A model generated the notes under the pieces. That model worked only from the letters and a program-made list of their open reading frames with translations, was not told the DNA's origin and made no database searches. A stretch of 64,000 bases of DNA from a virus. Of the stretch, positions 5,552-64,000 are shown in pieces. The position numbers were made by a program, and so were the translations under genes. The first letter of the stretch is position 1; every line of letters starts with the position of its first letter. The stretch is from the IMG/VR virus record IMGVR_UViG_3300042566_002057, positions 64,001 to 128,000 of that record; one strand, 5' to 3'.

Positions 5552-5580
5552 TACTACTGGTTAGAATTTAATGTATATAT

Positions 5581-5616
5581 AAAAAAAGAAAACCTTTCTC
5601 TCAAGAAAGGTTTTCT
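5581..5616 (-). terminator. Intrinsic terminator
   Basis: AGAAAACCTTTCT-CTCA-AGAAAGGTTTTCT hairpin followed by a T-run on the minus strand. Confidence 0.8.
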
Positions 5617-5996
5617 CTAATAAGTCTTTGTTTGACATATTCTATAATGACATTTTCGGGTATATCTCCGTGTTTTATTTTGATAGCTCTCCACAATTCT
5701 TGTTCTTCAAGACCAAGTTTTTCAACTTGTTTATTAAGTGGGTCTACAAGTTTCTGTAGTTTCTGACCTTCAATTTCAAATTCTTGAACCACCTTTGCTA
5801 ACTCACCGACCGCTTCTTCAACAGAATTTCTATCATCAGCAAAATTTTCTTGAATATCTTCTACTTTGTGAATTAGATTATCAATATTTGCGGTAATTTC
5901 TCTAGCTCTTCTTTTATATAAATCTAAATTAGAATTTACTTTAAGATATTCTCTTCTTATTCTAACAGCCGCATTTACAAAATTTTCGTCAATCAT
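5601..5996 (-). CDS. Hypothetical coiled-coil protein
   Basis: 131 aa helical heptad pattern. Confidence 0.5.
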   Translation of the reverse strand: MIDENFVNAAVRIRREYLKVNSNLDLYKRRAREITANIDNLIHKVEDIQENFADDRNSVEEAVGELAKVVQEFEIEGQKLQKLVDPLNKQVEKLGLEEQELWRAIKIKHGDIPENVIIEYVKQRLIRENLS

Positions 5997-6958
5997 TATT
6001 TGGAAGTTTCTTTTTTAGCTCTAGGTTTTCTAGTAGTTTTTGGTTTTGTTGGAGTCTCAATATCTTTTGTTAAAACCGGTTCTTTCTCAAAAGAAAGTGG
6101 TTCATGTTTTTCAACTTGTGTAACTGAATCTGTTATTTGTGGATTAACAGGTGTTGTAGTAGTATCAGCTCCATATACAACTTCTTTAATTTTTTGTCTA
6201 ATCATATCTTCAATCATTTGAGGATTTGACAAAATATTTTGAGTAAACTCTGATGCTAAGAAATCAATAATACTAGTGTTATAAGAATCTTCCATCATTT
6301 CAATAAAGTCAGGTCGAGGAATTCTGTTTTTAATTTCAAGTGAAATTGAAAAATCTTTTATTCTTTTTACGTTCTTAAACATATTTATAATAGGATCCTC
6401 AGTTTGTGTTTGAGTAACTTCTGGTTGATTATAATTAACTTCTTGAGGGGTAGGATCTCTATTTACTTCTACTCTCATCACAGGCTCATCGACTATTGGA
6501 GGTCTTTGTGTTACAACTGGTAATTCATCTTCTGAATCTTCACCTAAAATTTTAGCAAAGGCTTGTTGTTGATTCATTACTTGTGGTGAACTATCAATAG
6601 AAGCTCCATATTTTCTAGCCAGTTCAGCTTTTTCATCTTCTTCAGTAGTCATAACAATAGCACTTTCATTTACTGCCGGTGAAAGTTCTCCACCAAATCT
6701 TGAAGATATTTCTTCAGGATCATCTTGCATCATATTTGTTGGGATATTTTTTATTTTATCTGCTAAAATATTATAAGCACCTTGGTTGTTGAAAAAGTTA
6801 AGAGGGTCTATTTGTTCGGTGAAGTGATTTGTATCAGTTAGAGTCCTAACATCTAGTTTTTGTTTATTTTCGAGAATTGCGATGTTCTCAAAAGAATCAA
6901 TAACTTTGACAACTTCTCCTGTTTTATTATTTCTGAAAGTTTTATTGGCTAAATTCAT
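5996..6958 (-). CDS. Hypothetical protein (true start probably ATG 6958, MNLANK)
   Basis: The ORF-track extension to 7090 runs through a terminator and a promoter motif at 6983-7011. Confidence 0.55.
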   Translation of the reverse strand: MNLANKTFRNNKTGEVVKVIDSFENIAILENKQKLDVRTLTDTNHFTEQIDPLNFFNNQGAYNILADKIKNIPTNMMQDDPEEISSRFGGELSPAVNESAIVMTTEEDEKAELARKYGASIDSSPQVMNQQQAFAKILGEDSEDELPVVTQRPPIVDEPVMRVEVNRDPTPQEVNYNQPEVTQTQTEDPIINMFKNVKRIKDFSISLEIKNRIPRPDFIEMMEDSYNTSIIDFLASEFTQNILSNPQMIEDMIRQKIKEVVYGADTTTTPVNPQITDSVTQVEKHEPLSFEKEPVLTKDIETPTKPKTTRKPRAKKETSK

Positions 6959-7020
6959 CTGGGTAAATTTTATTTTTCTTCTATTTATATAAGAATTAGT
7001 TCTTTTGTTTAAGTATATAA

Positions 7021-7048
7021 AAAAAAATCCCATATTTCTATGGGATTT
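7021..7048 (-). terminator. Intrinsic terminator after the SSB gene
   Basis: AAATCCCATA-TTTC-TATGGGATTT hairpin with T-run. Confidence 0.75.
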
Positions 7049-7067
7049 AATTTTTTCAGAGTTACTA

Positions 7068-8205: not shown

Positions 8206-9198
8206 TTACAGACCGAATCTTGATTTAGTTAAATTCCAAATAGATTCAATTTCTGAGTTACCTAAAGCTTTGTCATAGATATCAACTGTGGCTAATCTGC
8301 CACCCCAATAATCAGATAAATCCCATCTTTCCATTAATCGTATACCAGCACCTGATGATGTTGGTGTTCCTGTATAATTAGTACTATCAACTAATGTATT
8401 ATTAACGTATAATTTAATAGTTGAACCATCATAAGTTCCAACAATATAATACCAATTATTTGGAGTTAATGAATAACCATCAGTAATTCTCCAACTACCA
8501 TTAAAGAATCCCACACTAAATGGTGCAAGATTTTTACCAAGTGAATAATTTATACCTCCACCAATAAAGGTTTCAGTTACGATACAAGGAGCAGCACCTG
8601 TCTCTGTTCCTGTATAATAATGCCAAACAGCAACTGACCAAGTACCTAAGCTTGGTAAACTTGTTGAACATCTTACAGATTGTGATAACGAGGTATTAAA
8701 GTTAAAATAACCTCCATTACTTGCAGACCAAGTGGGTGAGTTGTATAATACAAATGATTTTGATCCAATAGAATCTATCCAATCACCACTTGTATAATCA
8801 GCAGCATCTAAAGATAAGACAGGTATTGCAATATCACTATAACTTGTCCAGTATCCATTACTTTCTAACCAAGTTTTTGCGTCTATAGCAGAGGTTGCTT
8901 GGTAACCTGATACAACTTTTACTAAATCAATAAACTCATTATCATCAAAATTATCCGTTCTAAAAAAACCAACACTACCTGTATTACCATCATTTGGTGT
9001 TGGTTGGTCTTCTGTTGCAACTGTTGTTGCAATAATATATCCTAAATCCTCATCAGCTCCACTCCACCATTTAACTCCAGAGTAATTTGAATTGTAAGGA
9101 TTAGACGCATCAACTCCAACTAAAAGATCGCCATATCTTTCAGTTCCGCTAGGTGTTCCACCACCTGTATATCTAGCAAAAAGTCTTGTTGTAGCCAT
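8206..9198 (-). CDS. LamG/concanavalin-like domain protein, probably virion-associated
   Basis: NNWYYIVGTYDGSTIKLYVN and IYDKAL..EI..WN LamG motifs; late-type promoter. Confidence 0.75.
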   Translation of the reverse strand: MATTRLFARYTGGGTPSGTERYGDLLVGVDASNPYNSNYSGVKWWSGADEDLGYIIATTVATEDQPTPNDGNTGSVGFFRTDNFDDNEFIDLVKVVSGYQATSAIDAKTWLESNGYWTSYSDIAIPVLSLDAADYTSGDWIDSIGSKSFVLYNSPTWSASNGGYFNFNTSLSQSVRCSTSLPSLGTWSVAVWHYYTGTETGAAPCIVTETFIGGGINYSLGKNLAPFSVGFFNGSWRITDGYSLTPNNWYYIVGTYDGSTIKLYVNNTLVDSTNYTGTPTSSGAGIRLMERWDLSDYWGGRLATVDIYDKALGNSEIESIWNLTKSRFGL

Positions 9199-9212: not shown

Positions 9213-9944
9213 TTATAAAAAGTGATGCGTGATGACTTTACTTAGATCGGTTGAAACCATACTAGATTTAAGAACACTATATGATTCATCACTACATTTG
9301 ATAAACTCTACTTCACCTCTTGCCAAAGTAACTACATCACCGTTTTCCTCATCAACATAATCTTCTAACCAAAATCCTAAAAGTGGTCTAAACTCAGTTG
9401 CCTGATAAACTCGTTTTAGAACATCAACAATTTCTGGTAAATCTTTTTTATCAAAATCACCAATTGAAAACATCATTATTGGATAAGCTTTGATTTTACC
9501 ATTTTCAATATTTTCAATAAATAATTCATCTTTTGTTTTATTAGTTAATCCAGATTGTCTTATCTTAGATACTGAATTTTTAACATCATCTAAAAAGATA
9601 TATTCTTTTCTATTATCAAGTATTTTTTTGTTAAGAGGGGTATCTGGATTGCCAAATGTAAGTGATTCAGGATTTAAAAAAAGTTCTTCCCATGTTTGGC
9701 CAAGTAATTCATCTGGTTTTCTAAATTCCCAATTTTCTGGATAACTTGTCATATCATAATATAAGTCAGATTGAATTTGTCTAGTCCACATATAAGGAAA
9801 ATAAAGATATCCTGAGTCAATAAATTCACATTTAGAAATAATATTATCATCTAATAATTCAATTAAAATATCTTTTATATCTTCTGGATTAGCGAATATT
9901 TGGGTATTAGACTCAAATAATTTATATGACTTAAGAAATTTCAT
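9213..9944 (-). CDS. Hypothetical protein with N-terminal capsid-targeting-like tag
   Basis: Starts MKFLKSYKLFES. Confidence 0.6.
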   Translation of the reverse strand: MKFLKSYKLFESNTQIFANPEDIKDILIELLDDNIISKCEFIDSGYLYFPYMWTRQIQSDLYYDMTSYPENWEFRKPDELLGQTWEELFLNPESLTFGNPDTPLNKKILDNRKEYIFLDDVKNSVSKIRQSGLTNKTKDELFIENIENGKIKAYPIMMFSIGDFDKKDLPEIVDVLKRVYQATEFRPLLGFWLEDYVDEENGDVVTLARGEVEFIKCSDESYSVLKSSMVSTDLSKVITHHFL

Positions 9945-10922
9945 TTATAAATTGAGTAATATTTTAACAGTGTAGTCATATACTTCATAGTTTTCAGTAT
10001 CAAATCCTCTATTACCTCTTGAAACATCAAATATTACTTCTTCATAATCTAAAGTTGGTAAAATTGTTGGAAGAACTTCATCTAAGTCAGACTCTAGTTT
10101 TAATAAATTCATTTTACCTGTTGTGTGTGAATCGTGATAACCACCTATATTTATAGTGACACACGGTTTATACATTTCTAAAATTTTAGGTATAGAGTAT
10201 TCTTTTAATTCTTTAATATCTCTTTCTGTGATAGTTACACTACGTTTCTCATCACCCTTAAAAGTAGCACCAGCATAAATACCCATTTCTTTGTAATCAT
10301 CTATATTAAAGTTTTGACACTGCCATTTCTTATCAGTAACATAATAACTTTCATCACTTTGTCTTAAAAAGTAGGATGGATAAGAACCAATATTAAGTGT
10401 TGGAAAAACTATATCTTTTATGATACTTATAATAATTCTCATTTTAGTTTTATCATCTGTTTCTTTTACAGAAAGTAAACCGTTATATTTATATTGAGAT
10501 GATTTTTCATAATTCTCTACATCACCATAAGCTATACAACACATTGTATACTTTTGTTTTTCTGAAGGTAGTAAATCATAAACATCATACATTCTATCAT
10601 TAATATATTCAACATCGACTTTATCAATCGAATCAAACATTTTATCAACTAATGTCTCAATCTTATCATACCAACCTTCTCCGATAAAATGGTCAGACCA
10701 TTTTTTTACAGACTGAAAAGTAACTGGTTGTGAACCACCTCTACTCCATTCCCAAGACTTAAGATCTTCGATCCAATCGTGAATTCCATATGAGTTATTT
10801 GACTCAAATATTTGATATTTTTTTAAGTATCTCATTCTATCTCTAATTAGTATCTGGATAACTTCTTCTTTAGTTAAAGTTTTAGAATTCAAACTTTCAT
10901 TTATTCTCTTTAGGTATTTCAT
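9945..10922 (-). CDS. Hypothetical protein with two tandem N-terminal tags
   Basis: MKYLKRINES at aa 1 and MRYLKKYQIFES at aa 30. Confidence 0.6.
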   Translation of the reverse strand: MKYLKRINESLNSKTLTKEEVIQILIRDRMRYLKKYQIFESNNSYGIHDWIEDLKSWEWSRGGSQPVTFQSVKKWSDHFIGEGWYDKIETLVDKMFDSIDKVDVEYINDRMYDVYDLLPSEKQKYTMCCIAYGDVENYEKSSQYKYNGLLSVKETDDKTKMRIIISIIKDIVFPTLNIGSYPSYFLRQSDESYYVTDKKWQCQNFNIDDYKEMGIYAGATFKGDEKRSVTITERDIKELKEYSIPKILEMYKPCVTINIGGYHDSHTTGKMNLLKLESDLDEVLPTILPTLDYEEVIFDVSRGNRGFDTENYEVYDYTVKILLNL

Positions 10923-11461
10923 CAGATACTAAATTTAGTTTTTGTACCATCTGGTTTAGAATAAACTATATTAGTCACATTTTTTACTTGATATTTATAA
11001 TCTGATTTAACATATTTTTTACCTGTTCCTTTATTAACATAAGCAATCGTGATGTGTGGCTTATAATCAGGAAACTCATTTGAGTTAGGAAACTCAGATA
11101 ATTTATTGTGTAACTCTAAAAGAGTACCATCTGGTCTTACATTGAATTTAACAACATCATACTTTTCATTCTCAAAGATATCAATACCATCAACTTCAAT
11201 ATTAATATCACTATTGAAATTATCGAATACTGATTTTACCATTTCATCTGTTACTTCTTCATGTAGACCGTAAAGTATAGTAACATGTGGATTTTTTTGT
11301 ATACTGTGAGTAGAGTCACCTTCTTCTTGATAAACATCTTCAGTATCAATTGATGATGTTATTTCATCCCAATTGCTTATTGGAATTTCAACCATTACAC
11401 AACCATACTTATAGCCGTTTATTGATTCATTGATAAACTGTATGTAACTTTTAATTTTCAT
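10922..11461 (-). CDS. 2H phosphoesterase (T4 gp57B/Acb1-like) with N-terminal tag
   Basis: Two HxT motifs, PHVTILYG and YKPHITIAY; starts MKIKSYIQFINES. Confidence 0.8.
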   Translation of the reverse strand: MKIKSYIQFINESINGYKYGCVMVEIPISNWDEITSSIDTEDVYQEEGDSTHSIQKNPHVTILYGLHEEVTDEMVKSVFDNFNSDINIEVDGIDIFENEKYDVVKFNVRPDGTLLELHNKLSEFPNSNEFPDYKPHITIAYVNKGTGKKYVKSDYKYQVKNVTNIVYSKPDGTKTKFSI

Positions 11462-11832
11462 TAGAATGGATAATCTTCTTTTTTCTCTTCAGTTGCAAAT
11501 ATTTGTATATTAATAGAAGAAACAAATATTTCTGTTGATAATTTATATTCTGGGTACCTTTCAGACAGTCTATTTAAAGCAACTTCTACTTCTTGTAGTA
11601 AATTACTATTATACTTTGTGTAATTTATAAAGTTAAGTAACTCAGAATTTTTAATCTTAGTGGTTCTTCTTAGAACTCTATCATCAGGTTTTGATTTAAC
11701 TTTTACATTTATAGTAACGTATGTTTGATAGTCACTTATTTCAACTACACCGTTATCTATAAGTTCAGCAAAACAATCGTAAATAAAATCATAGTCTGTT
11801 TTACTTTCATTAATTCTTTTCAGATATTTCAT
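11461..11832 (-). CDS. Hypothetical protein with N-terminal tag
   Basis: Starts MKYLKRINES. Confidence 0.6.
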   Translation of the reverse strand: MKYLKRINESKTDYDFIYDCFAELIDNGVVEISDYQTYVTINVKVKSKPDDRVLRRTTKIKNSELLNFINYTKYNSNLLQEVEVALNRLSERYPEYKLSTEIFVSSINIQIFATEEKKEDYPF

Positions 11833-11850
11833 AAAGGTATATATTAAACA

Positions 11851-14933: not shown

Positions 14934-15419
14934 TTATTTTACTAATTCATATTTTTCTACTAACTCTGAGTGAATTAGCTGTGGAATCCTTTTCCACTCT
15001 TTGTACCAAATGTTACATACATAAACATCTTGTCCATTATCTTTAATTATTTCAACAACATCATACTCAGCTGATGGAAAAGGACCAATTGGTTTAGTAG
15101 TAACTTTACCAATTATTGGCATCTTAGTCACATCATCACCACTATAAGAGAGTGATTCAACATATTTAATATCAAAATTTTCATCTGAAATTTCTTCTTC
15201 ATCTTCAATATCAAAGTCAAACCCCATACTAACTAAAGAACTCATAGTTGCGTCAATCATATCTAATTTAGCACCTCTTTCTTTCATATAATTCTCAAAA
15301 AATTCAGGGGTTATTATTTGACCATCAGCTCTCATCCTTTTGAGTTGCGGTAATAAATCATTAGCAATGTCATCTGCCAAGTCAAAATAAGTTTCATTAA
15401 ATTTTCTTAAGTATTTCAT
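14934..15419 (-). CDS. Hypothetical protein with N-terminal tag
   Basis: Starts MKYLRKFNET. Confidence 0.6.
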   Translation of the reverse strand: MKYLRKFNETYFDLADDIANDLLPQLKRMRADGQIITPEFFENYMKERGAKLDMIDATMSSLVSMGFDFDIEDEEEISDENFDIKYVESLSYSGDDVTKMPIIGKVTTKPIGPFPSAEYDVVEIIKDNGQDVYVCNIWYKEWKRIPQLIHSELVEKYELVK

Positions 15420-15421
15420 AA

Positions 15422-15832
15422 TTATCTAAAAATTTTTGAATTAAATATCTTATCTGATAATAAATAATGAAAAGATTGACTTACTTCTTCTTTACTTAAA
15501 TCAGAATACTCTGTATCTAAAAGAGATTTAATCTTAACATAAAGACCAGATTGTCTATCATTAAGTTTATAACCATTTTCTAAATACTCTTCTTCTGATA
15601 TTATTTCTTCTATTATTTTTTCTAAGAAGTTATTAGGATCAGATATACGACCACTATCAATAACTTGTTGAAGTTCGTCAGATGTAAAGGTTAATTCATT
15701 ACATAAGTCACCTAATTCAGAAAGAATATCTTCATTAGAAAGTTTATCAAGATTGATAATTTTATCAGCCATTTTAATGAATTCTTCAATTCTATCAAAT
15801 GATGCTTCGTTAAATCGTTTTAAGTGTTTCAT
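15422..15832 (-). CDS. Hypothetical protein with N-terminal tag
   Basis: Starts MKHLKRFNEA. Confidence 0.6.
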   Translation of the reverse strand: MKHLKRFNEASFDRIEEFIKMADKIINLDKLSNEDILSELGDLCNELTFTSDELQQVIDSGRISDPNNFLEKIIEEIISEEEYLENGYKLNDRQSGLYVKIKSLLDTEYSDLSKEEVSQSFHYLLSDKIFNSKIFR

Positions 15833-15850
15833 TTCTTTTTCTTTGATTTT
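15818..15850. repeat. 33-bp perfect direct repeat, copy 1
   Basis: TTTTAAGTGTTTCATTTCTTTTTCTTTGATTTT, identical at 16093-16125. Confidence 0.9.
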
Positions 15851-15852
15851 TA

Positions 15853-16107
15853 TTAAAGTTTTCTCAACATATTCAATATTAATGTATTATCATAAACATC
15901 AGTATCTTGAGAATCACCTCCTGACCACCAAGTTACATCACTTTTATAATCAGATACTTTGTTAATTGTCATAGTTCCATATTCATAAGGTACTTCAAAT
16001 CCAAATTCATCACCTTTAAATCCGTCAATCTCTTTAGAAAAATTACATAGGTCATCAAATGATAATTTTTCATCAACGGATTCGTTATATGTTTTTAAGT
16101 GTTTCAT
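15853..16107 (-). CDS. Hypothetical protein with N-terminal tag, flanked by the 33-bp repeats
   Basis: Starts MKHLKTYNES. Confidence 0.6.
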   Translation of the reverse strand: MKHLKTYNESVDEKLSFDDLCNFSKEIDGFKGDEFGFEVPYEYGTMTINKVSDYKSDVTWWSGGDSQDTDVYDNTLILNMLRKL

Positions 16108-16125
16108 TTCTTTTTCTTTGATTTT
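16093..16125. repeat. 33-bp perfect direct repeat, copy 2
   Basis: Identical to 15818-15850; spans the upstream leader and the codons for MKHLK. Confidence 0.9.
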
Positions 16126-16628
16126 CCTTCACCCGAAAATGGTGATAATAAATGTTTTAAGTTCCAACTGGGTATGAATTTTTTGTTGTGTTTCTCAAAG
16201 TCTTCATAAGACTCAATTCCGGTATCTACTGGATTCTGAATATATTGTATATTAGCACCTTGTTTATTCATATCAGAGACTCTATCACCAATATCAACTC
16301 CCTTTGTCATTTTTCTTAACTTATTCCACTGTTGAACAGTTCTTTCTCTTGGAAGTGATTCTTTTAATCCAACAACAACATTGATTGTTCCATCTGAATT
16401 GAATTTAGCAAAGTAAGTATCTTCTACAATTGGTAAAGTTTTATCAACAAGATCTTGGTTGATGTTATCTACTCCAAACTCTTTAACAGTTTTTACACCA
16501 TTATCATCAATAACAAAATGAAAATTGTCTTCTGGATTTTTATCTATAAGTGATTTAATTTTAGAAGCTACAGAAATAAACTCTGAACTTCCTCCATACG
16601 GCTTTAATCTTGCTCTTAAAATTTTCAT
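16104..16628 (-). CDS. Hypothetical late protein
   Basis: 174 aa ORF with class C promoter at 16632-16642. Confidence 0.55.
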   Translation of the reverse strand: MKILRARLKPYGGSSEFISVASKIKSLIDKNPEDNFHFVIDDNGVKTVKEFGVDNINQDLVDKTLPIVEDTYFAKFNSDGTINVVVGLKESLPRERTVQQWNKLRKMTKGVDIGDRVSDMNKQGANIQYIQNPVDTGIESYEDFEKHNKKFIPSWNLKHLLSPFSGEGKSKKKK

Positions 16629-16640
16629 AAATTATATATA

Positions 16641-16670
16641 AAAAATAAAAAACCCACTTTAGTGTGGGTT
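16641..16670 (-). terminator. Intrinsic terminator
   Basis: AACCCAC-N6-GTGGGTT hairpin with T-run on the minus strand. Confidence 0.65.
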
Positions 16671-18179: not shown

Positions 18180-18262
18180 TTTAGGTAAATATTTTGTTCT
18201 TTATATATCTTTTAATTCAAATTATGTTTTGTCCAAATCTAAAAAAGATGTAAATTTGTATT

Positions 18263-29967: not shown

Positions 29968-29978
29968 ATATATAGTAA

Positions 29979-46082: not shown

Positions 46083-46111
46083 ATACTATATATAAAATTT
46101 GTGTTATTAAA

Positions 46112-46958: not shown

Positions 46959-46974
46959 GGTACAAAGATACGAA

Positions 46975-49783: not shown

Positions 49784-49889
49784 AGTGTATATATTAATTT
49801 ACAAACATTTAATATTAAGTTAATATCCCCACTATAAAAAACCAGACAATTCTTATCAATTTTATTTAATAAAAAAATAAATAGATAAG

Positions 49890-50621: not shown

Positions 50622-50660
50622 TAAAAACAAAAAAAGATTTTTCTCATATATATCATTATT

Positions 50661-52001
50661 ATGAGAGAAACTTCAATTACTAACTTTCTAGCAAAAGAAT
50701 ATAAAGAGTTTGCAATGTACTCGATTGAGGGTAGAGCTATACCTTCTATTGTTGATGGTTTTAAACCTACCCAAAGAAAAATTATTCACGTTTCAAGTCA
50801 GATTTGGAAGACCGGAAATGAAAAAACTCTTAAAGTATTTCAGTTAGGTGGTAAAGTTGCATCTGATGCTTTTTATCATCACGGAAACGCTTCATTAGAA
50901 AATGCCATTATTACGATGGCTCAGAGATTCAAGAATAACGCACCTCTATTAGAAGAAGAAGGACAGTTTGGTTCATTAAGATCCCCACAAGCTGGTGCTC
51001 CTCGTTATATCGGAACTAAACTCACAGAGAACTATAGATTACTTTACAAAGACTTTGAGTTATTAGAATATAAACAAGAAGAAGGTGAATCAATTGAACC
51101 AAAATTCTTTTTACCTATTATTCCAACTGTACTTATTAACGGTTCATCTGGAATTGCCGTAGGATTCGCATCAAACATTCTAAACAGAGATGTTAAAAGT
51201 ATAATCGAATGTTGTCAAAAGATTTTAACAGATAAAAAAATATCTGAAGTTAAACCATCTTTAACAGGATTCACTGGTGAGTTCATACAGGATAAAGAAA
51301 ATCCAAAAAGATGGATTATTAGAGGTAAGTTTGTAAGAGCAAACACTTCAACTGTTAAAATATCAGAACTCCCACCATCAATGACTTATGAAAAATACGA
51401 AGAGATTTTAGACAAACTTGTTGATGACAAATTAATTGTTTCTTATGATGACAACTGTAAGGATAACATAGATTATACAATAAAGTTTACACGTTCTGAT
51501 TTAGAGAAATTAGATGACGAGAAACTAATTAAGTTATTGAAATTAGAAGAATCATCTACCGAAATATTCTCAACACTAGATGAGACTGGTAAATTAATGA
51601 TATTTGAGTCGACATCAGATATGATCACTTACTTTGTTAATTTCAGATTGACATATTATCATAAGAGAAAACAATTCTTATTAGATAAATTAAACAGAGA
51701 ACTAAAAATACTTTCTAATCGTGGTCGATTTATTAAAGCAATAATTGATGGTAAATTAAAAGTTAACAATGTTGCTAAGTCTCAAATCATCGAAGGAATT
51801 GAAGCGATGGGTTTAGATAAGATAGATGACTCATACGATTATCTTTTAAGAATGCCTATCTACTCCTTAACAAAAGAGATGTATGAAAAGTTAAAAGAAG
51901 ACTTTAAATTGAAAAAAGAAGAGATTACAAAATTAGAAGCAACCGATCCAAAAGATATGTATATAGATGATCTTAATGAGTTAAAAAAGAAATTTAAATA
52001 A
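50661..52001 (+). CDS. Type II DNA topoisomerase DNA-cleavage subunit, T4 gp52-like
   Basis: RAIPSIVDGFKPTQRK, YHHG, APRY catalytic Tyr, GIAVGF. Confidence 0.93.
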   Translation: MRETSITNFLAKEYKEFAMYSIEGRAIPSIVDGFKPTQRKIIHVSSQIWKTGNEKTLKVFQLGGKVASDAFYHHGNASLENAIITMAQRFKNNAPLLEEEGQFGSLRSPQAGAPRYIGTKLTENYRLLYKDFELLEYKQEEGESIEPKFFLPIIPTVLINGSSGIAVGFASNILNRDVKSIIECCQKILTDKKISEVKPSLTGFTGEFIQDKENPKRWIIRGKFVRANTSTVKISELPPSMTYEKYEEILDKLVDDKLIVSYDDNCKDNIDYTIKFTRSDLEKLDDEKLIKLLKLEESSTEIFSTLDETGKLMIFESTSDMITYFVNFRLTYYHKRKQFLLDKLNRELKILSNRGRFIKAIIDGKLKVNNVAKSQIIEGIEAMGLDKIDDSYDYLLRMPIYSLTKEMYEKLKEDFKLKKEEITKLEATDPKDMYIDDLNELKKKFK

Positions 52002-52303
52002 TGGAAAGAATGAAAAGATATGAGGATTTCAAGAATGAAAGTAATGATACTGACTACCTCACTAAAGAAGAACTTGAAAAAGTAAAGTGGACTAGATATA
52101 AAATTATAGTTCCGACTCAAGAAGATAAAGAAGAATTAGAGAAAGCGTTTGAGCACATTCACTATTCTGATATTGATACAGATAATATTGCTGTTAATCA
52201 ATTAGCACATGAATATCTAACTGAAGAAGTAACAGGTGATACTCAAACCAAAAATAATATTATAGTTGACGAAGAACTATATAATAAATTAAATAAAAAC
52301 TAA
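52001..52303 (+). CDS. Hypothetical protein with N-terminal tag
   Basis: Starts MERMKRYEDFKNES. Confidence 0.55.
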   Translation: MERMKRYEDFKNESNDTDYLTKEELEKVKWTRYKIIVPTQEDKEELEKAFEHIHYSDIDTDNIAVNQLAHEYLTEEVTGDTQTKNNIIVDEELYNKLNKN

Positions 52304-54340: not shown

Positions 54341-54952
54341 ATGACGTTTTTTATTTCACTTATGATAATTATGATGGTGTTTGCTTTGGGTATGAAAGCT
54401 CAAAATACCATTTATAAATACAGTTCAGACACTGAGCAAAAGAAGAAAATTTCAGAAAAGAATCAAGAGTTTTCTGAAATTTTACAAAATATTCATAGTT
54501 GTATATTTAGAAGTAGAGTAAATACAACTGTTTACATACAAACTAAATCATCAAAACACGGTGATGTTGATATTATTTACTTGATGGACAAACCGGATAT
54601 TGCAATATTCAAAGGTGATTCCTGTATTTACACATCTGATTCGGTTGACGAAGAAATTATTACTAAAATTATTGAGTCAATAAATATTAAGTTTAGAAGT
54701 AAAATTAATGATGTTGTAGAAGTATTAGGTTTTACTTTTTACAGAGAAGATTTTGAGAAAACCTTTGGTGGTAAATTCAAGAATATGAATTTTGACTCAC
54801 TAATCCAAGAAGACGAACTTGGTTCTATAATTAAAGAAAACTCAAAGAAATTTGACTTAGATGAAATATTAGATAAAATTTCTGAGTTTGGTGTTAACTC
54901 TCTAACATTAGAGGAAAGATTGTTCCTCGATAAGTATGGAAAGAAAGATTAA
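54341..54952 (+). CDS. Membrane-anchored protein with C-terminal LDEILDKIS..G..SLT.EE..FL domain (DUF6576-like)
   Basis: N-terminal hydrophobic helix; C-terminal motif shared with 62320-62910. Confidence 0.55.
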   Translation: MTFFISLMIIMMVFALGMKAQNTIYKYSSDTEQKKKISEKNQEFSEILQNIHSCIFRSRVNTTVYIQTKSSKHGDVDIIYLMDKPDIAIFKGDSCIYTSDSVDEEIITKIIESINIKFRSKINDVVEVLGFTFYREDFEKTFGGKFKNMNFDSLIQEDELGSIIKENSKKFDLDEILDKISEFGVNSLTLEERLFLDKYGKKD

Positions 54953-55310
54953 TTTAGAAAATATAATTTCTTCTATTGAGTTCTATGATTATACATCATT
55001 GAATAAAATGGTCAATTTAATTATTGAATCAAATAATACTTATTATTTTATTGAGGATGAATTAGAAAAAGTTATAGATGTGACTCAAATGCCATCCTAT
55101 ATTCAATTAGATTGGTTTAAGTATAACAAAAAAGAATTAACTTTATCTATAGTTAACAAACATATCAAGTATTTAAAAGACTCAATAGAAGATTTATATA
55201 CAAAAAATATGTCAATTCAAAAAAATATTGAAGTTGAACAACAAATACAACAAGTACTTGAAAAAGTATTTTTAATTAGACGAGACCTTATTATTAACGG
55301 AATACTATAA
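54936..55310 (+). CDS. Hypothetical protein with C-terminal tag
   Basis: Ends RRDLIINGIL. Confidence 0.55.
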   Translation: MERKINLENIISSIEFYDYTSLNKMVNLIIESNNTYYFIEDELEKVIDVTQMPSYIQLDWFKYNKKELTLSIVNKHIKYLKDSIEDLYTKNMSIQKNIEVEQQIQQVLEKVFLIRRDLIINGIL

Positions 55311-55543: not shown

Positions 55544-57766
55544 ATGAAGAAAGCTTTACTAACACTAATCAGTACAATAGCCTTAGTCAATACACTATTC
55601 TCTCAGTATTGTCCATTTCTAGGCCCAGATCAATTTTTACCGTGTGGTGTGACATCAACAACACTCACTGCTGACTTAAGTCAATGTGGACCAGGTGGTG
55701 CAAATCCAAACCAAACAACTAACTATGGTGTTACTCAAATTCCTTATGTTTCTCAAACAAATACAGGTACTTTAGTCAATTTGTCGGATGACTCACAATC
55801 AGGTCCTTTCAATATTGGATTTACTTTTTGTTACTTTGGTCAAACCTACACACAATTTTATATTGGATCAAATGGTTGGATATCATTTAGTGCTGGTCAA
55901 TCAACCACATTTACCTCAACTCCAATTCCAAACGTTGCTGCTACAACTCCCAAAAACTGTATTATGGGACCGTGGCAAGATTGGAATCCTGGAATAGGTG
56001 GTCAAATAAGATACCAAGTTCAAGGAACAGCACCGTGTCGTAAATTAGTCGTGAGTTGGGTAAATGTGCCAATGTTTTCTTGTACGAATTTATTGGGAAC
56101 TTTTCATATTGTAATTTATGAATCAACTAACGTAATCGAAAATCACATACAGAATAAACCAAATTGTCTACAATGGGCTGGTGGAACAGCAGTACAAGGT
56201 ATTCATAACTTACCAGGTACTACAGCAATATCTGTTCCTGGTAGAAATTCATCACAATGGACCACACAAAATGATGCAAGAAGATGGACACCATCTGGAC
56301 CAGTTGTTACTCCAACACTAACTTGGTTTCAAGTTGGAAATCCAAATCCAATAGGAACAGGACCTACTATTACAGTAACCCCACCACCAGCTGGTGCTAA
56401 CTACACTTGTCAATTTGTTTATCCAATTTGTAATACTGGGTGGTCTAATTGTAATTTAGCAGGTGGTGGATTAGGACCAGACACAGTTTTTGTTCAACCA
56501 GGTCCACCTCAATTACCTAACCCAACTGTAGTTTTTCAAGATCCTTTATGTAATGGTGATTGTAACGGAACAATTGATGTCACACCCAATGGTGGTACCG
56601 GAGTTATTACAATTTCTTGGACAACACCAAATAATGGATTTAATCTAACTAGCTTATGTGCTGGAAACTACAACTATAACTTAATAGATGCTGCTGGATG
56701 TACTTACAATGGTTCAGTGACTCTCAATAATCCACCGGTAGTCATAGTGAGTACTATAACAGGATCTGATACTGTATGTATTAGTTCTAATAATGAATTA
56801 TATTCGGTAGTTAATCAACCTGGTTATACTTACATTTGGCAGACAATTGGTAATATAACCTCTGGTCAAAATACAAATACAATTACAGTTGACTGGAGTT
56901 CACAACCTTCTGGATTTATCCCTGGTTCAGTTCAAGTTACAGCTTATAACCAAAACAATTGTCCAAGTCTTCCTTCCGTATTCGATTTAACAGTTTTCTC
57001 GGTAAGTCCTTTAATAACTCAAATTGGTCCTTTCTGTACTTATGATGAATGTGAATTATTGACAGCTCAACCAATAGGTGGATTATTTACTATAAATGGT
57101 AACAACAACACACAGTTTTGCCCTCAATCAAATTCATCTTTTGATACGGTTGTCTACACTTATGTACAAAGTGGTTGTATCTTTTATGATACAGCATCTT
57201 TTGTAGTAAATCCACAACCTAATATTCTAAGCATCTCACCGGATAACTCTTTTCTAGAGCTCTGTGAAGGTGATTCAGTACAAATAGATTTTAGTATTCA
57301 ATCTACATTAAATGGAATTGTTAGTTGGAATATCAATAATCAACAAATTAATAGTATTAGCTCTATTTCAACTACTTGGAATTCATTTGGAACCTTTATA
57401 ATAGATGCTTTTGTAACAACACCTGAAGGTTGTGTCTCACCTGAAATATCAACATCATTAACTATTCAAGAGTGTCCAAATACTTTAATTTATATACCAA
57501 ACTCTTTTACACCTGATGGTGATGAGCATAACAACAAATGGTTACCAGTCTTCACAAGTGGGTTCGATCCTTTTGACGTAGATATATTTGTTTTTAATAG
57601 ATGGGGTGAACTTGTATGGGAATCTCATAATGTTAGTTTTGGTTGGGATGGTACTTACCAGGGTACGATGTGTCCAGTTGGGGTTTATGTTTACAAAATC
57701 ACTTATGGTAATGTTAAAAATGATTCCAGAAGTATTATTATTGGTCACTTAACTTTATTGAAATAA
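55544..57766 (+). CDS. Secreted adhesin-like protein with T9SS type-B (gliding-motility-associated) C-terminal domain
   Basis: Signal peptide ending LFSQ; SprB/PKD-like repeats; IPNSFTPDGD..N, IFVFNRWGELV, GWDGTY.G...PVGVYVY. Confidence 0.85.
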   Translation: MKKALLTLISTIALVNTLFSQYCPFLGPDQFLPCGVTSTTLTADLSQCGPGGANPNQTTNYGVTQIPYVSQTNTGTLVNLSDDSQSGPFNIGFTFCYFGQTYTQFYIGSNGWISFSAGQSTTFTSTPIPNVAATTPKNCIMGPWQDWNPGIGGQIRYQVQGTAPCRKLVVSWVNVPMFSCTNLLGTFHIVIYESTNVIENHIQNKPNCLQWAGGTAVQGIHNLPGTTAISVPGRNSSQWTTQNDARRWTPSGPVVTPTLTWFQVGNPNPIGTGPTITVTPPPAGANYTCQFVYPICNTGWSNCNLAGGGLGPDTVFVQPGPPQLPNPTVVFQDPLCNGDCNGTIDVTPNGGTGVITISWTTPNNGFNLTSLCAGNYNYNLIDAAGCTYNGSVTLNNPPVVIVSTITGSDTVCISSNNELYSVVNQPGYTYIWQTIGNITSGQNTNTITVDWSSQPSGFIPGSVQVTAYNQNNCPSLPSVFDLTVFSVSPLITQIGPFCTYDECELLTAQPIGGLFTINGNNNTQFCPQSNSSFDTVVYTYVQSGCIFYDTASFVVNPQPNILSISPDNSFLELCEGDSVQIDFSIQSTLNGIVSWNINNQQINSISSISTTWNSFGTFIIDAFVTTPEGCVSPEISTSLTIQECPNTLIYIPNSFTPDGDEHNNKWLPVFTSGFDPFDVDIFVFNRWGELVWESHNVSFGWDGTYQGTMCPVGVYVYKITYGNVKNDSRSIIIGHLTLLK

Positions 57767-58510: not shown

Positions 58511-58894
58511 TTACTGAAACGATGATGGTAAAGTATATTTCTCAGCCTTAAGAAATTTTATCAAAAGAAATATAATACTGGCTCCTGGTATTAATGTGAG
58601 TACAGTAAGACTAATTGTCTTAAATATATCTTTTAATTGGTCATAAATCTTTTTTCTTTGTTCTTTATTTAATTCTATTTCATCTTTACTAGCTCTTACG
58701 ACTAGATTAAAAGCTTCTTTTGTTTCTTTACTTTCATTTTTAATGCTATCAATAAATTTAAAAAAATTCTTTTTCATTTCTTTATAAAAGTCAGAATAAA
58801 TATCACCCATCTTAGCGATTGGATCAACCGGCATAAACATCATATCCATTGTCTCATTGATGTTAAAATTCTCAAATGTTTTAAGGTGTTTCAT
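58511..58894 (-). CDS. LETM1-like membrane-hairpin protein with N-terminal tag
   Basis: Starts MKHLKTFENFNINET; QLKDIFKT..LTVL.LIPG...LPSSF. Confidence 0.55.
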   Translation of the reverse strand: MKHLKTFENFNINETMDMMFMPVDPIAKMGDIYSDFYKEMKKNFFKFIDSIKNESKETKEAFNLVVRASKDEIELNKEQRKKIYDQLKDIFKTISLTVLTLIPGASIIFLLIKFLKAEKYTLPSSFQ

Positions 58895-59643: not shown

Positions 59644-59693
59644 AAAGTATATATTAATTATTATGACTTGAATATTGATTATAGTTTAAAAAT

Positions 59694-60618: not shown

Positions 60619-60692
60619 AAGAAAAAGATATATTTTAAGTTATATATAAAAAACCTTTGTTTTTGTTTTATTTTTCGTATATTTGCCTAACT

Positions 60693-61163
60693 ATGTCTCA
60701 GATCGATGTAAATCTAAATAAAATAATGAATCTTATTAGATTCAATGCCAATCTATCAAGATATGTTGATGTAGGTGAATTAGTTCGACAATCACCTGAT
60801 TACATATTAGAAAAATATAACCATTGGATTTCATTCAATCCAGTTATTGATGAACCAATTTACACACCTGACGATTGTGAGCAACTTATTCATCAATACT
60901 CCAAAATCTGGGGTAGATTTCCAACACAGAAAGTAACAAGACATCTTTTTTATTTACAACAAACTAATAGTATGAAACTATTAAATATGGTGGAAAAGTT
61001 TGAGGTGTATTTCGGACCTATTGAGTTGATTAGTAGTGAAGAAAAAAATGGACTACACTTTATTTTAGAAAGAGATTTTGTTAGTAAAGTTGTAGAATAT
61101 AACGAAGAGGCACTCACAATCATTCTAAGAGATTTGAAATTAAAAAAATTAGTAAACAATTAA
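60693..61163 (+). CDS. Hypothetical early protein with C-terminal tag (start probably ATG 60693)
   Basis: TATATTTG at 60678-85; ends LRDLKLKKLVNN. Confidence 0.6.
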   Translation: MSQIDVNLNKIMNLIRFNANLSRYVDVGELVRQSPDYILEKYNHWISFNPVIDEPIYTPDDCEQLIHQYSKIWGRFPTQKVTRHLFYLQQTNSMKLLNMVEKFEVYFGPIELISSEEKNGLHFILERDFVSKVVEYNEEALTIILRDLKLKKLVNN

Positions 61164-61647: not shown

Positions 61648-61651
61648 AACT

Positions 61652-61867
61652 ATGAAAAAGGAAGACATTCTTATTTGTCAAGAAACAATTAAAAATACAT
61701 TTGGGTGGATTCTATTTGAATCTGGTAAAGAGTATAAAGTGTTAAATATTGATGATGAAGAAGTCTTCCTTAACCACACTCTTTATGCGAATGAGTATAA
61801 TTCATTTCCTATCAATTGGGTATTAGAAAAATTTAAACTTAAAGATAATGTTAAAAGAAAAGATTGA
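61652..61867 (+). CDS. Small hypothetical protein
   Basis: 71 aa ORF in operon. Confidence 0.5.
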   Translation: MKKEDILICQETIKNTFGWILFESGKEYKVLNIDDEEVFLNHTLYANEYNSFPINWVLEKFKLKDNVKRKD

Positions 61868-62282
61868 ACTTATTATTGACACACTTGTTAAAACCACCGA
61901 GTCAGGAAATCTAATCTGGGAAGAAGATTCATCTTCATATGATAGAAGGTATAAAAGAAAAATGCAATCTGTTGGTGAAGATTCATCAATATATGAATTA
62001 GAGATTGAATATAAGTTAGTTAATGAAAAATTCATATTAGACAATCAACCATCTTTATGGATTAGAAATCCTAAACTACCAAATGGTATGTTTTACATCT
62101 ATGGTGGGAAATATGATATTATAAAACTAAGAGACCTTATTTTGAGTAAATTCTTATCAAACTTTACCCCATCACTTGGTGACTTAGAAGATACATTAGA
62201 TGAAATAGCAAAAGGAGTTAATGTGTCTGAATTTAGAGAAGGAAAAATTAATAAGATTCTAGGCTTTCTTAAAATAAACTAA
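61848..62282 (+). CDS. Hypothetical protein with C-terminal tag
   Basis: Ends FREGKINKILGFLKIN. Confidence 0.6.
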   Translation: MLKEKIELIIDTLVKTTESGNLIWEEDSSSYDRRYKRKMQSVGEDSSIYELEIEYKLVNEKFILDNQPSLWIRNPKLPNGMFYIYGGKYDIIKLRDLILSKFLSNFTPSLGDLEDTLDEIAKGVNVSEFREGKINKILGFLKIN

Positions 62283-62319
62283 AATTTATATTTTACATAA
62301 AATAAAAAAAACTACTGAT

Positions 62320-62910
62320 ATGTATATAATTGACGCTGATATTGAAGATGTTTACAAAGAATTTCCATTCATCAATGATTGGATTTCCACAATTTGTAAC
62401 AGTATACTGAATAAATCTTCTGACGAATGTAAAGTTCACATGTTTTATCACTATGGATTCTTTAATCCAAAAGTTACTGACAAAGAAGAATACTACTTGA
62501 GACAATATGAGAAGTGTAGTAAGATGAAGTATGATGAAAGACTTGATTATGAAATTTCAAGAACCAGAGTCAACGTGACTGTAAAGATTGATAACTTTAT
62601 GATGACTAATAGATTAGAAAAGGGTTTGGTACCATCAACAATTGAAAGCATTGTTAAAGAAATTACAAAATATAAAATGTTAATTGAGTCTGATTATCAT
62701 AATGACAAAGATATAAAAGATTCAATTCCACCTATTGATAGTACAATAGTATCAGTTGATTTAATAAAAAGTTTAGTTTCTGGAACAGATGAAGTAGATG
62801 AAACGGAATTTGATTTAGATGAAATTTTAGAAAAGATATCCACAGATGGAATTGAATCACTTACTGATAAAGAAAAAGAATTCTTAGATAAGAAAAGTAA
62901 AGAAATGTAA
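62320..62910 (+). CDS. Hypothetical protein with C-terminal DUF6576-like domain
   Basis: FDLDEILEKISTDGIESLTDKEKEFLDK. Confidence 0.55.
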   Translation: MYIIDADIEDVYKEFPFINDWISTICNSILNKSSDECKVHMFYHYGFFNPKVTDKEEYYLRQYEKCSKMKYDERLDYEISRTRVNVTVKIDNFMMTNRLEKGLVPSTIESIVKEITKYKMLIESDYHNDKDIKDSIPPIDSTIVSVDLIKSLVSGTDEVDETEFDLDEILEKISTDGIESLTDKEKEFLDKKSKEM

Positions 62911-63713
62911 TGGATATTAATCAGATATATCAAGGTGACTCATTAGAGTTACTTAAAAAATTACCAGACAACTCGGTTGACTTGGTGATAACATCACCAC
63001 CATATGCCGACTTAAAGGTTTATATTGATAATCCTGGTGTACTTGCTGGTAAATATGTTGAGTGGCTTTTACCTATCTGTAACGAAATTTGTCGTGTTAT
63101 AAAACCAACTGGATCTTTCATTCTAAACATAAATGATAAAGTAGAGGATGGATTTAGACATCCTTATGTTTATGACTTAATATCAGAGATTCATAAAAGA
63201 ACTGATTTAAAGATGTTTGAGAGATTGTTTTGGAATAAACTTAAAAGTTTACCCAATCGTTCTAGATTTGGTGACCGTGTTGAATATCTCTTTTGGTTCG
63301 CCAAAGAAAGGGGATTTCAGTTTTACATTGATGAAATGAGAACTGAATATTCAGAGAAGTCAATTAAAAGAATGACTAAACCTCTAAAGAAAAGATTCGC
63401 TAGAACTGAAGGTGATGATGATATAGAGTATAAAGATTGGGCTCCGAATCCAAAAGGTGCTCTTCCAACGACTCTGATAAATATATCATCCGAGTCTAAA
63501 AGAATTGCTGATACTCACGTTGCTGTTTACCCGGTTGAACTTGTGAAATACTTTATCAAAGGCTCTACGAAAGAAGGTGATGTTGTTTTAGATCCGTTTA
63601 TGGGAACTGGAACCACTGGAGTTGCTTGTAAACAATTAGGAAGAAATTATATTGGATTTGACTTACAACAAGACTATATTGACGTTGCTAATAAAAGAAT
63701 TGAAGAATGTTAA
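62910..63713 (+). CDS. DNA methyltransferase, N4-C/N6-A beta class
   Basis: TSPPY motif IV before DPFMGTGTT motif I. Confidence 0.92.
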   Translation: MDINQIYQGDSLELLKKLPDNSVDLVITSPPYADLKVYIDNPGVLAGKYVEWLLPICNEICRVIKPTGSFILNINDKVEDGFRHPYVYDLISEIHKRTDLKMFERLFWNKLKSLPNRSRFGDRVEYLFWFAKERGFQFYIDEMRTEYSEKSIKRMTKPLKKRFARTEGDDDIEYKDWAPNPKGALPTTLINISSESKRIADTHVAVYPVELVKYFIKGSTKEGDVVLDPFMGTGTTGVACKQLGRNYIGFDLQQDYIDVANKRIEEC

Positions 63714-64000
63714 GAATATCTAAAGATACCAATAAAATAGTTTCTATAAAATGGTTTACTAAGGAAGAAGTAGAAACTGGATACAATGGAAACGACATAG
63801 ATAGTATTGCTATTATACCAGGTGTAACACAATACCAACACATCTATACTAAAGGTAATTGGATAGTTTTTGATAGTCGTACAAGTTATGTTGGTGTCGA
63901 ATTTAATTCAGAATCTGATTTAGAAAGATTCTTCGTTCAGTTAATGAGAGATATAAAACTTAATCAAATCACAAATGTGACTGTTGATACAAAAACTAAT
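63707..64000 (+). CDS. Hypothetical protein (3'-truncated) with C-terminal-type tag
   Basis: MLRISKDTNK...LMRDIKLNQITNV; open to the window end. Confidence 0.55.
   Translation, partial: MLRISKDTNKIVSIKWFTKEEVETGYNGNDIDSIAIIPGVTQYQHIYTKGNWIVFDSRTSYVGVEFNSESDLERFFVQLMRDIKLNQITNVTVDTKTN

Follow-up and report, generated by a model that had tools for sequence, protein, structure and literature searches.

The subject of this report is a 64,000-nucleotide stretch of viral DNA (the window), comprising bases 64001–128000 of the 151,950-bp contig IMGVR_UViG_3300042566_002057 (~30% G+C), in which two short peptides recur on the predicted proteins, one at the extreme N-terminus (N-tag) and one close to the C-terminus (C-tag). 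The tags partition by promoter class: N-tagged open reading frames (ORFs) lie in transcription units headed by the AT-rich motif WWATATATA, and C-tagged ORFs in units headed by the box TAnnTTTG or by the two-part motif AAACTT-N-TATAAA. This coupling of tag and promoter across genomes is new here, and it is real and strong. The reading we favor, and hold to be somewhat probable, is that the accessory proteome of these phages is sorted by two terminal peptides, each tied to one temporal gene class, the timing of the two classes being predicted from their motifs.

On sequence grounds, the window is a piece of a huge Bacteroidota phage of the clade of the 634–642 kb “Mahaphage” genomes. Its topoisomerase region shares 73–75% DNA identity with the uncultured phage genomes LR745206.1 (634,780 bp) and LR756502.1 (642,428 bp), the largest complete genomes in Al-Shayeb et al. 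2020, which belong to the “Mahaphage” clade and have Bacteroidetes as predicted hosts (PMC7162821). A head module was not found on the contig, which is a fragment; the whole genome LR745206.1 (W01, 889 ORFs) served as an independent complete relative. A further set of 73 IMG/VR loci, from some 60 contigs of which the longest has 508 kb, was obtained by scanning for WWATATATA and then for a strict N-tag 3–6 nucleotides (nt) downstream, and the bait genes were taken out of the association counts. A literature search found no paper describing either tag in this clade.

The N-tag is 9–12 residues long and has the consensus M-K-[YH]-[LI]-K-x-[FY]..E. Its copies align as M-[KR]-[YH]-[LI]-K-x-[YF]-N/x-E/x-F and take the form M-K-[YH]-[LI]-K-x-[FY]-(N-E or x-x-F-x-E), with hydrophobic-x-Glu (h-x-E) at the end. 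A hidden Markov model (HMM) built from 28 copies, trained on the contig only and used at a threshold of 8 bits, recovered 16 N-tagged ORFs from the window; a further, weak case has a GTG start. In W01, at least 8 bits was reached at 124 of 889 real N-termini (14% of genes), compared with 9 of 3497 internal 20-mers beginning with Met and 19 of 5415 shuffled N-termini. The C-tag has the core R-[DE]-x-K-[IL]-x-x-[IL]-[LI], preceded by h-x-x-h; the logo of 106 copies reads hydrophobic-x-x-hydrophobic-R-[D65/E23/N14]-x-K(90%)-[I/L]-x-x-[I/L/V]-[L/I]. The distance from tag to stop ranges from 0 to 9 codons, and 71 of the 106 copies stop 0–2 residues short of the C-terminus. On the contig, a loose form of the pattern falls within the last 25 residues of 24 proteins, against 17 places in the remaining 46,000 residues. 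The contig-trained HMM marks 15 C-tagged ORFs in the window and scores at least 8 bits at 104 of 889 real C-termini in W01, against 15 of 6751 internal windows. Measured against these controls, both tags are confined to their own terminus far above chance, and together they cover about one quarter of all genes in the window phage and its relatives.

Most carriers are without a recognizable family: Pfam searches with 20 N-tagged and 10 C-tagged contig proteins returned none for the majority. The N-tagged domains detected on the contig are a T4-type RNA ligase 1, a 2H/LigT/Acb1-like phosphoesterase, a CCA-adding/poly(A) polymerase-type nucleotidyltransferase and an amidotransferase, and those in W01 are two NUDIX enzymes, GH108, an M15 peptidase, RNase T, ankyrin repeats and a 2H enzyme. 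C-tagged proteins gave one TacA-like stretch in a 590-residue contig protein and, for 1 of 102 W01 proteins only, a Pfam family (UVR motif); no Pfam model recurs among these 102, even at E up to 10. The median length is 172 residues for N-tagged proteins, 108 (range 56 to 731) for C-tagged proteins and 156 for all ORFs.

Among 7-mers, ATATATA shows the strongest enrichment within 60 nt upstream of start codons, being present at 47 of ~185 genes against 3.6 expected. Its full form is T-T-A-A-T-A-T-A-T-A (TTAATATATA), and it was searched as WWATATATA, with sites in the window at 11838, 16633, 26849, 28586, 29966, 31062, 34738, 37197, 46087, 49788 and 59648. TAnnTTTG sites are located at 18251, 27312, 37218, 46963 and 60678; this motif is the −7 box of the Bacteroidota sigma-A factor, spanning −12 to −5 in Flavobacterium (PMC9723704). 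The AAACTT-N-TATAAA type, with a spacer of N17–19, occurs at 25200, 26856, 44100, 44517 and 62276. All promoter coordinates given in an earlier note on this DNA were recovered within 1–2 nt. Over the whole contig, the 80 nt before starts contain 37, 23 and 14 copies of the WWATATATA, TAnnTTTG and AAACTT-type motifs, respectively, compared with 1.4, 3.2 and 0.8 at random positions, and all three are also commoner than in antisense orientation. WWATATATA is called late because the same motif heads hallmark late genes, namely those for the portal (phrog_213), the maturation protease (phrog_207) and the gp23-type capsid protein (PF07068) in W01, and in the window those for a virion structural protein (8206–9198) and a head–tail adaptor (20491–21291) as well as the endolysin unit. 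Thus, the late assignment proposed in the earlier note is supported, and the other two classes are inferred to be early or middle.

For the association tests, each gene was assigned its own motif or, failing this, that of the nearest upstream co-directional gene (unit level). In the window, the ratio of late to non-late assignments is 14:2 for N-tagged and 0:15 for C-tagged genes (Fisher p 5e-7), and on the contig it is 28:2 and 1:26 (p 8e-13). The same partition is found in W01 when only own promoters are considered (62:2 and 0:7, p 2.7e-8), at the unit level (109:2 and 10:50, p 1.7e-30) and with each unit counted once (75:2 and 5:30, p 9e-20). The 73 IMG/VR loci provide a similar result (111:3 and 5:24, p 2.8e-19). 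The association that the earlier note had read from the window therefore persists genome-wide and in about 60 further viral contigs. Concerning the two “non-late” N-tagged genes of the window, that at 25845 belongs to the late unit with its head at 26849 but was assigned by a spurious intragenic match, and that at 52001 is preceded by an ATATATA core without the W-W prefix. The latter had been listed as having no clear late motif, which is correct for the full motif, but the gene upstream of it does have an ATATATA core (50646–50652). C-tagged ORFs do follow host-type or AAACTT-type motifs as a class, except that the box at 46963–46970 is located downstream of the C-tagged ORF 46975–47217 to which it had been linked. 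The supposed C-tagged exception 54936–55310 scores 3.6 bits and is not a real C-tag.

Mutual exclusivity of the tags, also claimed at the outset, is borne out. Double-tagged proteins observed in three data sets number 0 against 4.2 expected, 1 against 14.8 (W01) and 0 against 9.9; there are none on the contig, none in the 73 IMG/VR loci, and the single case among the 889 W01 ORFs is doubtful, as it depends on an internal Met. In the favored reading, this exclusivity follows from two gene classes that have no members in common. Following removal of the ends, 2,383 proteins from four data sets were clustered, whereby 402 N-tagged proteins fell into 301 families and 172 C-tagged proteins into 148. 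None of the families has both N- and C-tagged members: homologous tagged pairs comprise 153 N–N, 32 C–C and 0 N–C, and orthologous proteins of the contig and W01 agree in tag class. The expectation that the same domain would carry different tags in different genomes thus failed. The related proposal, that a new domain acquires promoter and tag together, agrees with about half of the N-tagged genes, where an individual late promoter immediately adjoins the start codon in a cassette-like arrangement, but not with the C-tagged genes, as 95 of 103 in W01 lack a promoter motif of their own.

Stable tag classes would also result if the tags were remnants of two large, fast-diverging families that were duplicated with their promoters, so that both the promoter link and the exclusivity reflect common descent. 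Tagged genes indeed often form tandem arrays (9213–11832, 14934–16107, and 82466–85663 just past the window), some neighbors are detectable paralogs, and most tagged proteins are small and lack a family match. However, N-tags are found on unrelated folds (RNA ligase 1, 2H, pol-beta nucleotidyltransferase, NUDIX, GH108, M15, RNase T and GATase), and C-tags on fragments of capsid protein and protease as well as on the 590-residue TacA-like protein, over the whole size range given above. The large number of families on either side speaks against two ancestors, and the N-tag resembles an experimentally defined signal of phage T4 (see below). Common descent as the sole cause is consequently regarded as improbable.

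The position of the promoter motifs relative to the start codon is unusual as well. Late motifs end at two sharply separated distances from the ATG, with 117 cases at 4–5 nt and a second group at 18–23 nt, and TAnnTTTG, enriched 4–7 fold before start codons, peaks 4–5 nt from the ATG. The shared peak of late and host boxes is seen in the window, in W01 and in the sister lineage G002 (e.g. 11838–11846, 27312–27319 and 37197–37205 in the window). With a box at −12 to −5 and a 4-nt spacer, transcription would start on the A of the ATG, and the first genes of many units are therefore predicted to be leaderless. Transcripts of this kind make up only ~5.5% of the mRNAs in a Flavobacterium host (PMC9723704). 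In this context, the tags could conceivably act at the level of RNA or translation, the first codons aiding leaderless initiation and the last codons supplying the gene that follows with an A/U-rich start region or a nascent-peptide signal in Bacteroidota-type operons devoid of Shine–Dalgarno sequences. The spacing of both boxes would fit, as would the location of most C-tagged genes inside tightly packed operons and the abundance of Lys, Ile and Asn codons in the tags. Still, at every conserved position of the tags, synonymous codons occur in the proportions of the genome as a whole: for the N-tag Lys, AAA 58 and AAG 17 were counted compared with 56 and 19 expected from genome-wide use, and for the C-tag Arg, AGA 72, AGG 11 and CGN 13 compared with 74, 10 and 12. 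Selection thus acts on the amino acids, which argues against an RNA or translation signal. Moreover, 58 of the 124 N-tagged genes in W01 are operon-internal and hence not leaderless, many late genes of the leaderless type have no N-tag, and the C-tag, with its variable distance to the stop codon, is also present on the last gene of a unit (38356–38673). A role at the RNA level is scarcely credible on this evidence.

A comparison with the temporal promoters of T4 is instructive. Both systems have three motif classes; in T4, early promoters are of the sigma-70 type, middle promoters have a MotA-box and late promoters (TATAAATA) are read by gp55. In both cases, one class is the consensus of the host itself, another is two-part (here AAACTT, preceding TATAAA by ~17–19 nt) and a single AT-rich element heads structural genes. 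The motif sequences differ, and the host box here is of the Bacteroidota −7 type. Late and host boxes mostly lie 4–5 nt from the ATG here, with leaderless mRNAs predicted. W01 encodes two sigma-type ORFs, a 121-residue ORF beside the head genes with a weak match to sigma-70 region 2 and a 233-residue ORF of the sigma-70 family elsewhere (189151–189516, 330115–330321), which might recognize the late or middle motifs.

The signal that the N-tag resembles is the T4 capsid-targeting sequence (CTS), MKTYQEFIAE. Its 10 residues are the sole part common to the T4 internal proteins; it loads these, or any protein fused to it, onto the prohead core, and gp21 cuts at L/I-x-E (PMC3012670, PMC9026906, PMC8442874). 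Residues 4 and 7 serve targeting, residues 8 and 10 cleavage (PMC9026906). Scored with the N-tag HMM, the T4 CTS reaches 12.2 bits, aligned to the last eight positions, and at least 12 bits is attained by 1 of 3497 control peptides; its aromatic-x-x-aromatic spacing is present in the N-tag. An h-x-E motif occurs within residues 5–20 of 91% of N-tagged but 33% of untagged proteins, a count that is partly built into the HMM. The hydrophobic residue of this motif is F in 139, Y in 55, L in 60 and I in 57 cases, and the predicted leaders of 9 or 11–12 residues would be followed by Ser, Asn, Glu, Ala or Gly after the cut. The head module of W01 includes the protease (phrog_207, 106 bits; weak at 20 bits with PF03420 alone), the portal (phrog_213, 202 bits) and Gp23 (PF07068, 88.7 bits). 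In view of the T4 CTS score, the h-x-E end, the T4-type head module and the common late promoter, capsid loading with subsequent proteolytic release is, by analogy, the best-supported mechanism for the N-tag.

According to this mechanism, the N-tag would bind the scaffolding core of the prohead in the manner of the T4 CTS and be cut off by the maturation protease of the gp21 family, and the N-tagged enzymes would be carried inside the capsid and delivered to the next cell along with the DNA. The putative cargo set includes the RNA ligase, the 2H/Acb1-like phosphodiesterase, the CCA-adding enzyme, NUDIX enzymes and cell-wall hydrolases. Cargo of this kind would be needed during prohead assembly, which would explain why N-tagged genes are placed behind TTAATATATA, the promoter of the portal, protease and capsid genes. 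Wall hydrolases and counter-defense-type enzymes among the N-tagged proteins fit an injected kit.

In T4, the CTS is present on IPI, IPII and IPIII and in the propeptides of Alt, gp67 and gp68, and is removed by gp21. Both signals comprise about ten residues at the extreme N-terminus of unrelated proteins and share the succession M-K, aromatic-x-x-aromatic and hydrophobic-x-Glu, and in both cases the portal, the maturation protease and the gp23 capsid protein are of T4 type, with the tagged genes using the head-gene promoter. The N-tag differs in having three to four extra residues at its front (M-K-[YH]-L-K) and in its frequency, with ~120–150 tagged genes per genome (14%) compared with a handful in T4. 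Giant phages offer a second comparison: in phiKZ, 201phi2-1 and SPN3US, cleavage of head propeptides takes place behind a short motif whose last residue is Glu (PMC9026906). These phages have a gp21-related protease and pack tens of different proteins in the head; they use no common fixed N-terminal leader and are cut at S/A/G-x-E, whereas here one leader is found on more than 100 proteins.

The C-tag can be described as a short amphipathic terminal helix, whose invariant Arg and near-invariant Lys suggest docking on one partner. In the proposed scheme, the small C-tagged proteins would be made early or in mid-infection and the tag would most likely serve as their common handle for one partner. 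The earlier note had assumed an intracellular hub, which could in principle be the inner face of the host membrane if the C-tag were an amphipathic helix that directs proteins to membranes in the manner of MinD or FtsA. The tag has the appropriate geometry, as its short helix places hydrophobic residues at i, i+3 and i+4 with basic ones beside them, and some copies end in a MinD-like ..L-F-G-x. Lipid-binding helices tolerate much sequence variation, and an invariant Arg plus an acidic residue and a Lys at fixed spacing in 90% of copies would be unusual for them; moreover, the hydrophobic face consists of only three residues. We consider membrane targeting very unlikely.

Known C-terminal degrons and docking tails, such as ssrA for ClpXP/ClpAP, the C-terminus of MuA, the acidic tail of SSB, and the clamp-binding tails of T4 gp43, gp33 and gp55, similarly place a short terminal peptide on unlike proteins for recognition by a single partner. 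Within the C-tag, [DENQ]-x-K-[IL]-x-x-[ILV]-[LI] is spaced in a way reminiscent of the PIP-box register, but the sequence matches no ssrA, MuA, SSB or clamp-binding tail, and the C-tag is found on ~100 small proteins, whereas tails of the gp43/gp33/gp55 type belong to replication or transcription proteins. A sliding clamp of the gp45 type was tried as partner, and neither of the Pfam models PF09116 and PF02916 was found in W01 or the contig, a very divergent clamp being possible. A clamp-binding peptide was likewise rejected, as the C-tagged proteins are not replication proteins (with a Pfam family in 1 of 102). None of these 102 proteins matched the SHOCT domain (PF09851) at E values as high as 10, and an ESM Atlas search with the C-tag tail returned generic single-helix matches only.

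The leading candidate for the partner, on circumstantial evidence and with rather low probability, is a phage-encoded ClpC acting with ClpP, in which case the C-tag would be a degron. The contig ClpC gene (46536–48644, 17.5 kb before the start of the window) begins at residue 150 of B. subtilis ClpC, to which its product scores 794 bits; it lacks the adaptor-binding N-domain and keeps the VGF loop. W01 encodes ClpC together with two ClpP paralogs (loci 423224–425326, 123568–124089 and 75197–75721). With 85–99% identity in more than 120 protein clusters from contigs of up to 591 kb, the truncated ClpC is a core gene of the clade. In its strictest form, the degron explanation makes the C-tag purely a timer, by which ~100 small early proteins are erased by phage ClpC–ClpP or a host protease, and there is no hub. 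Its proximity to the free C-terminus, 0–2 residues in most copies, is reminiscent of ssrA-type degrons, the ClpP-docking loop of the truncated ClpC is intact, and its conservation is high. Four near-complete relatives and W01 all have ClpC and C-tags, and in G002 the ClpC shows only 47% identity and this C-tag is missing. Co-occurrence across the clade does not discriminate, however, as all members have both. ClpC itself belongs to the early or middle class, so that substrates and protease would be made together, and the strict Arg, Asp/Glu and Lys resemble a docking surface more than a pore-threading signal. A pure timer is therefore judged possible, albeit on the unlikely side. As a separate observation, the window encodes DnaK (31433–33319), DnaJ (22280–23347) and a GrpE-like protein, which with ClpC and ClpP amount to a full phage proteostasis set.

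Returning to sorting by two tags as a whole, several observations weigh against it. The late motif is also found before non-structural genes, and assignment by operon inheritance is imprecise, with 10 of 60 assigned C-tagged genes of W01 in “late” units. In G002 (IMG/VR, 344,634 bp, 25% G+C; loci L122–L139), 54 N-tags are accompanied by C-tag matches at background level only; a different tail, ..[EQ]-[AGS]-x-K-[LM]-G-L-L, closes 49 of the 468 ORFs (0.08 expected) and coexists with an N-tag in 15 of these 49 proteins. Exclusivity is thus a property of the R-D-x-K-I tail and not of C-terminal tails in general. (Many of the G002 ORFs with this tail form one array at 300–342 kb and appear paralog-like.) With regard to capsid loading, Phe or Tyr is found three residues before the predicted cut in more than half of the cases instead of the Leu or Ile of T4. 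The N-tagged proteins are acidic (net −4.9 per 100 residues) and enzyme-rich, whereas the T4 internal proteins are small and basic, and packaging and cleavage are here predicted from sequence. At 14% of genes (124 of 889 in W01), the share of capsid cargo would be far above that in T4, and some N-tagged enzymes, such as the endolysin-like GH108 or the RNA ligase, could be plain late cytoplasmic proteins. Finally, the cultured Bacteroidota jumbo phages PTm1 and MA9V-1 carry neither tag.

In its most complete form, the scheme would ship more than 100 late proteins in the capsid as an injected kit for RNA repair, anti-signaling and wall digestion, and have ~100 early proteins erased by phage ClpC–ClpP, the promoter setting the time and the tag the fate. 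This two-address version as a whole is considered doubtful. Most genes of the largest known phages are without assigned function. If two-tag sorting is correct, sequence data would be sufficient to place about one quarter of these genes as either late and probably virion-carried, or early, small and furnished with a common C-terminal handle. Candidates for injected counter-defense (the Acb1-like phosphodiesterase, RNA ligase 1, the CCA-adding enzyme and NUDIX enzymes) and for early host takeover could be chosen on this basis. The N-tag would extend the capsid-targeting principle of T4 to a scale not described before, and the partner of the C-tag becomes a concrete, testable question.

Of the individual N-tagged ORFs of the window, four make up a late unit headed by TAATATATA at 11838–11846, 5 nt from the ATG of its first ORF (11461–11832, −, 123 residues, 19.4 bits). 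It continues with the 2H phosphoesterase (LigT/Acb1-like; 10922–11461, −, 15.6 bits; Pfam 2_5_RNA_ligase2 E 3e-11, Acb1 E 4.5e-7) and ORFs of 325 residues (9945–10922, −, 20.4 bits) and, as fourth gene, 243 residues (9213–9944, −, 14.5 bits). The late motif at 16633–16641 lies 4 nt from the ATG of 16104–16628, which heads a unit with N-tagged ORFs of 84 (15853–16107, −, 23.2 bits), 136 (15422–15832, −, 24.5 bits) and 161 residues (14934–15419, −, 16.7 bits). A 136-residue ORF (25845–26255, −, 18.2 bits) is the second gene behind the late motif at 26849–26857. The T4-type RNA ligase 1 (28620–29942, +, 9.0 bits; Pfam RNA_lig_T4_1 E 4e-17) is preceded by a late motif at 28586–28594, 25 nt away, and by a TAnnTTTG box at 28607–28614. 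Downstream, a terminator hairpin is followed by the late motif at 29966–29974, 4 nt from the GTG start of an N-tagged ORF (29979–30776, +, 16.4 bits). A 94-residue ORF (30773–31057, −) with a late motif 4 nt from its ATG (31062–31070) carries a weak N-tag of 7.3 bits, outside the HMM training set.

The form of the tag nearest to the T4 CTS, a short one, is found on a 411-residue ORF (33479–34714, −, 12.1 bits) behind the late motif at 34738–34746. Another N-tagged ORF (36629–37192, −, 11.3 bits), behind 37197–37205, heads the unit containing the endolysin (35054–36085, PHROGs match). The N-terminus of a 513-residue ORF with a GTG start (44541–46082, −; late motif 46087–46095, 4 nt from the start) is tag-like but sub-threshold at 5.6 bits. 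An ORF of 221 residues (49118–49783, −, 14.8 bits) has its late motif at 49788–49796, 4 nt from the ATG. The 100-residue ORF at 52001–52303 (+, 12.0 bits) overlaps with its start the stop of 50661–52001, the gene behind the ATATATA core mentioned above, and a 127-residue ORF (58511–58894, −, 22.0 bits) is the second gene behind the late motif at 59648–59656. The RNA ligase 1, the 2H phosphoesterase and the CCA-adding-type nucleotidyltransferase (contig 149694–150866) might form a late tRNA-repair or anti-signaling kit.

Among the C-tagged ORFs, one of 113 residues (18646–18987, +, 14.0 bits) is the second gene behind TAnnTTTG at 18251–18258. The GrpE–DnaJ operon behind AAACTT..CATATA at 25200–25225 includes two, of 104 (23363–23677, −, 16.7 bits) and 193 residues (23670–24251, −, 12.8 bits, no Pfam family), and an ORF of 65 residues (26903–27100, +, 10.3 bits) follows AAACTT-N-TATAAA at 26856–26883. 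TATATTTG at 27312–27319 is located 4 nt from the ATG of a 138-residue ORF (27324–27740, +, 9.9 bits), with a 131-residue ORF in the same unit (27741–28136, +, 14.2 bits). No promoter motif was recognized upstream of a 72-residue ORF (31068–31286, −, 17.9 bits), and no unit was assigned to it. The unit headed by TATATTTG at 37218–37225 contains the C-tagged ORFs 38033–38359 (+, 16.2 bits) and, as its last gene with no co-directional gene after it, 38356–38673 (+, 105 residues, 14.7 bits). The former overlaps the end of 37231–38157 by ~125 nt and has no in-frame start past the stop of the latter; a frameshifted fusion, a programmed frameshift and a true overlap are all possible for 37231–38359.

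A 125-residue ORF (44132–44509, −, 13.2 bits) lies behind AAACTT..TATATA at 44517–44542, and an ORF of 80 residues (46975–47217, −, 13.6 bits) is co-transcribed with the gene for the large subunit of topoisomerase II (47214–49058). TATATTTG at 60678–60685, 7 nt from the ATG, precedes a 156-residue ORF (60693–61163, +, 13.8 bits) in a unit that also encodes a 144-residue ORF (61848–62282, +, 17.7 bits). The last, of 98 residues (63707–64000, +, 17.7 bits), ends 3 nt beyond the window edge and belongs to the unit behind AAACTA..CATAAA at 62276–62301. A C-tagged mini-ORF of 62 residues (41190–41378, −, 8.4 bits) bears a fragment of the gp23 capsid protein (PF07068). It is part of a region, 41003–41378 (−), with two adjoining mini-ORFs of gp23-type fragments (PF07068 E 7.5e-6 and 9e-4), each followed by a C-tag-like tail, the second ending at ~41003. 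In W01, a 243-residue capsid-protein paralog (207176–207907) has a C-tag, and an 83-residue C-tagged ORF at 460435 is a relative of a protease-bearing protein. Such C-tagged fragments of capsid protein and protease might be decoys or assembly inhibitors.

Two further observations concern other termini. The ORF at 55544–57766 (+) encodes a 740-residue protein with a signal-peptide-like start and an end resembling the CHU_C sorting domain of type IX secretion, and an ATATATA core lies 6 nt from its ATG; the product looks like a host-type secreted protein encoded by the phage. The ORFs 54341–54952 and 62320–62910 share a 30-residue end, ..F-D-L-D-E-I-L-[DE]-K-I-S...S-L-T..E..F-L-D-K, a DUF6576-like third C-terminal module that is separate from the C-tag.

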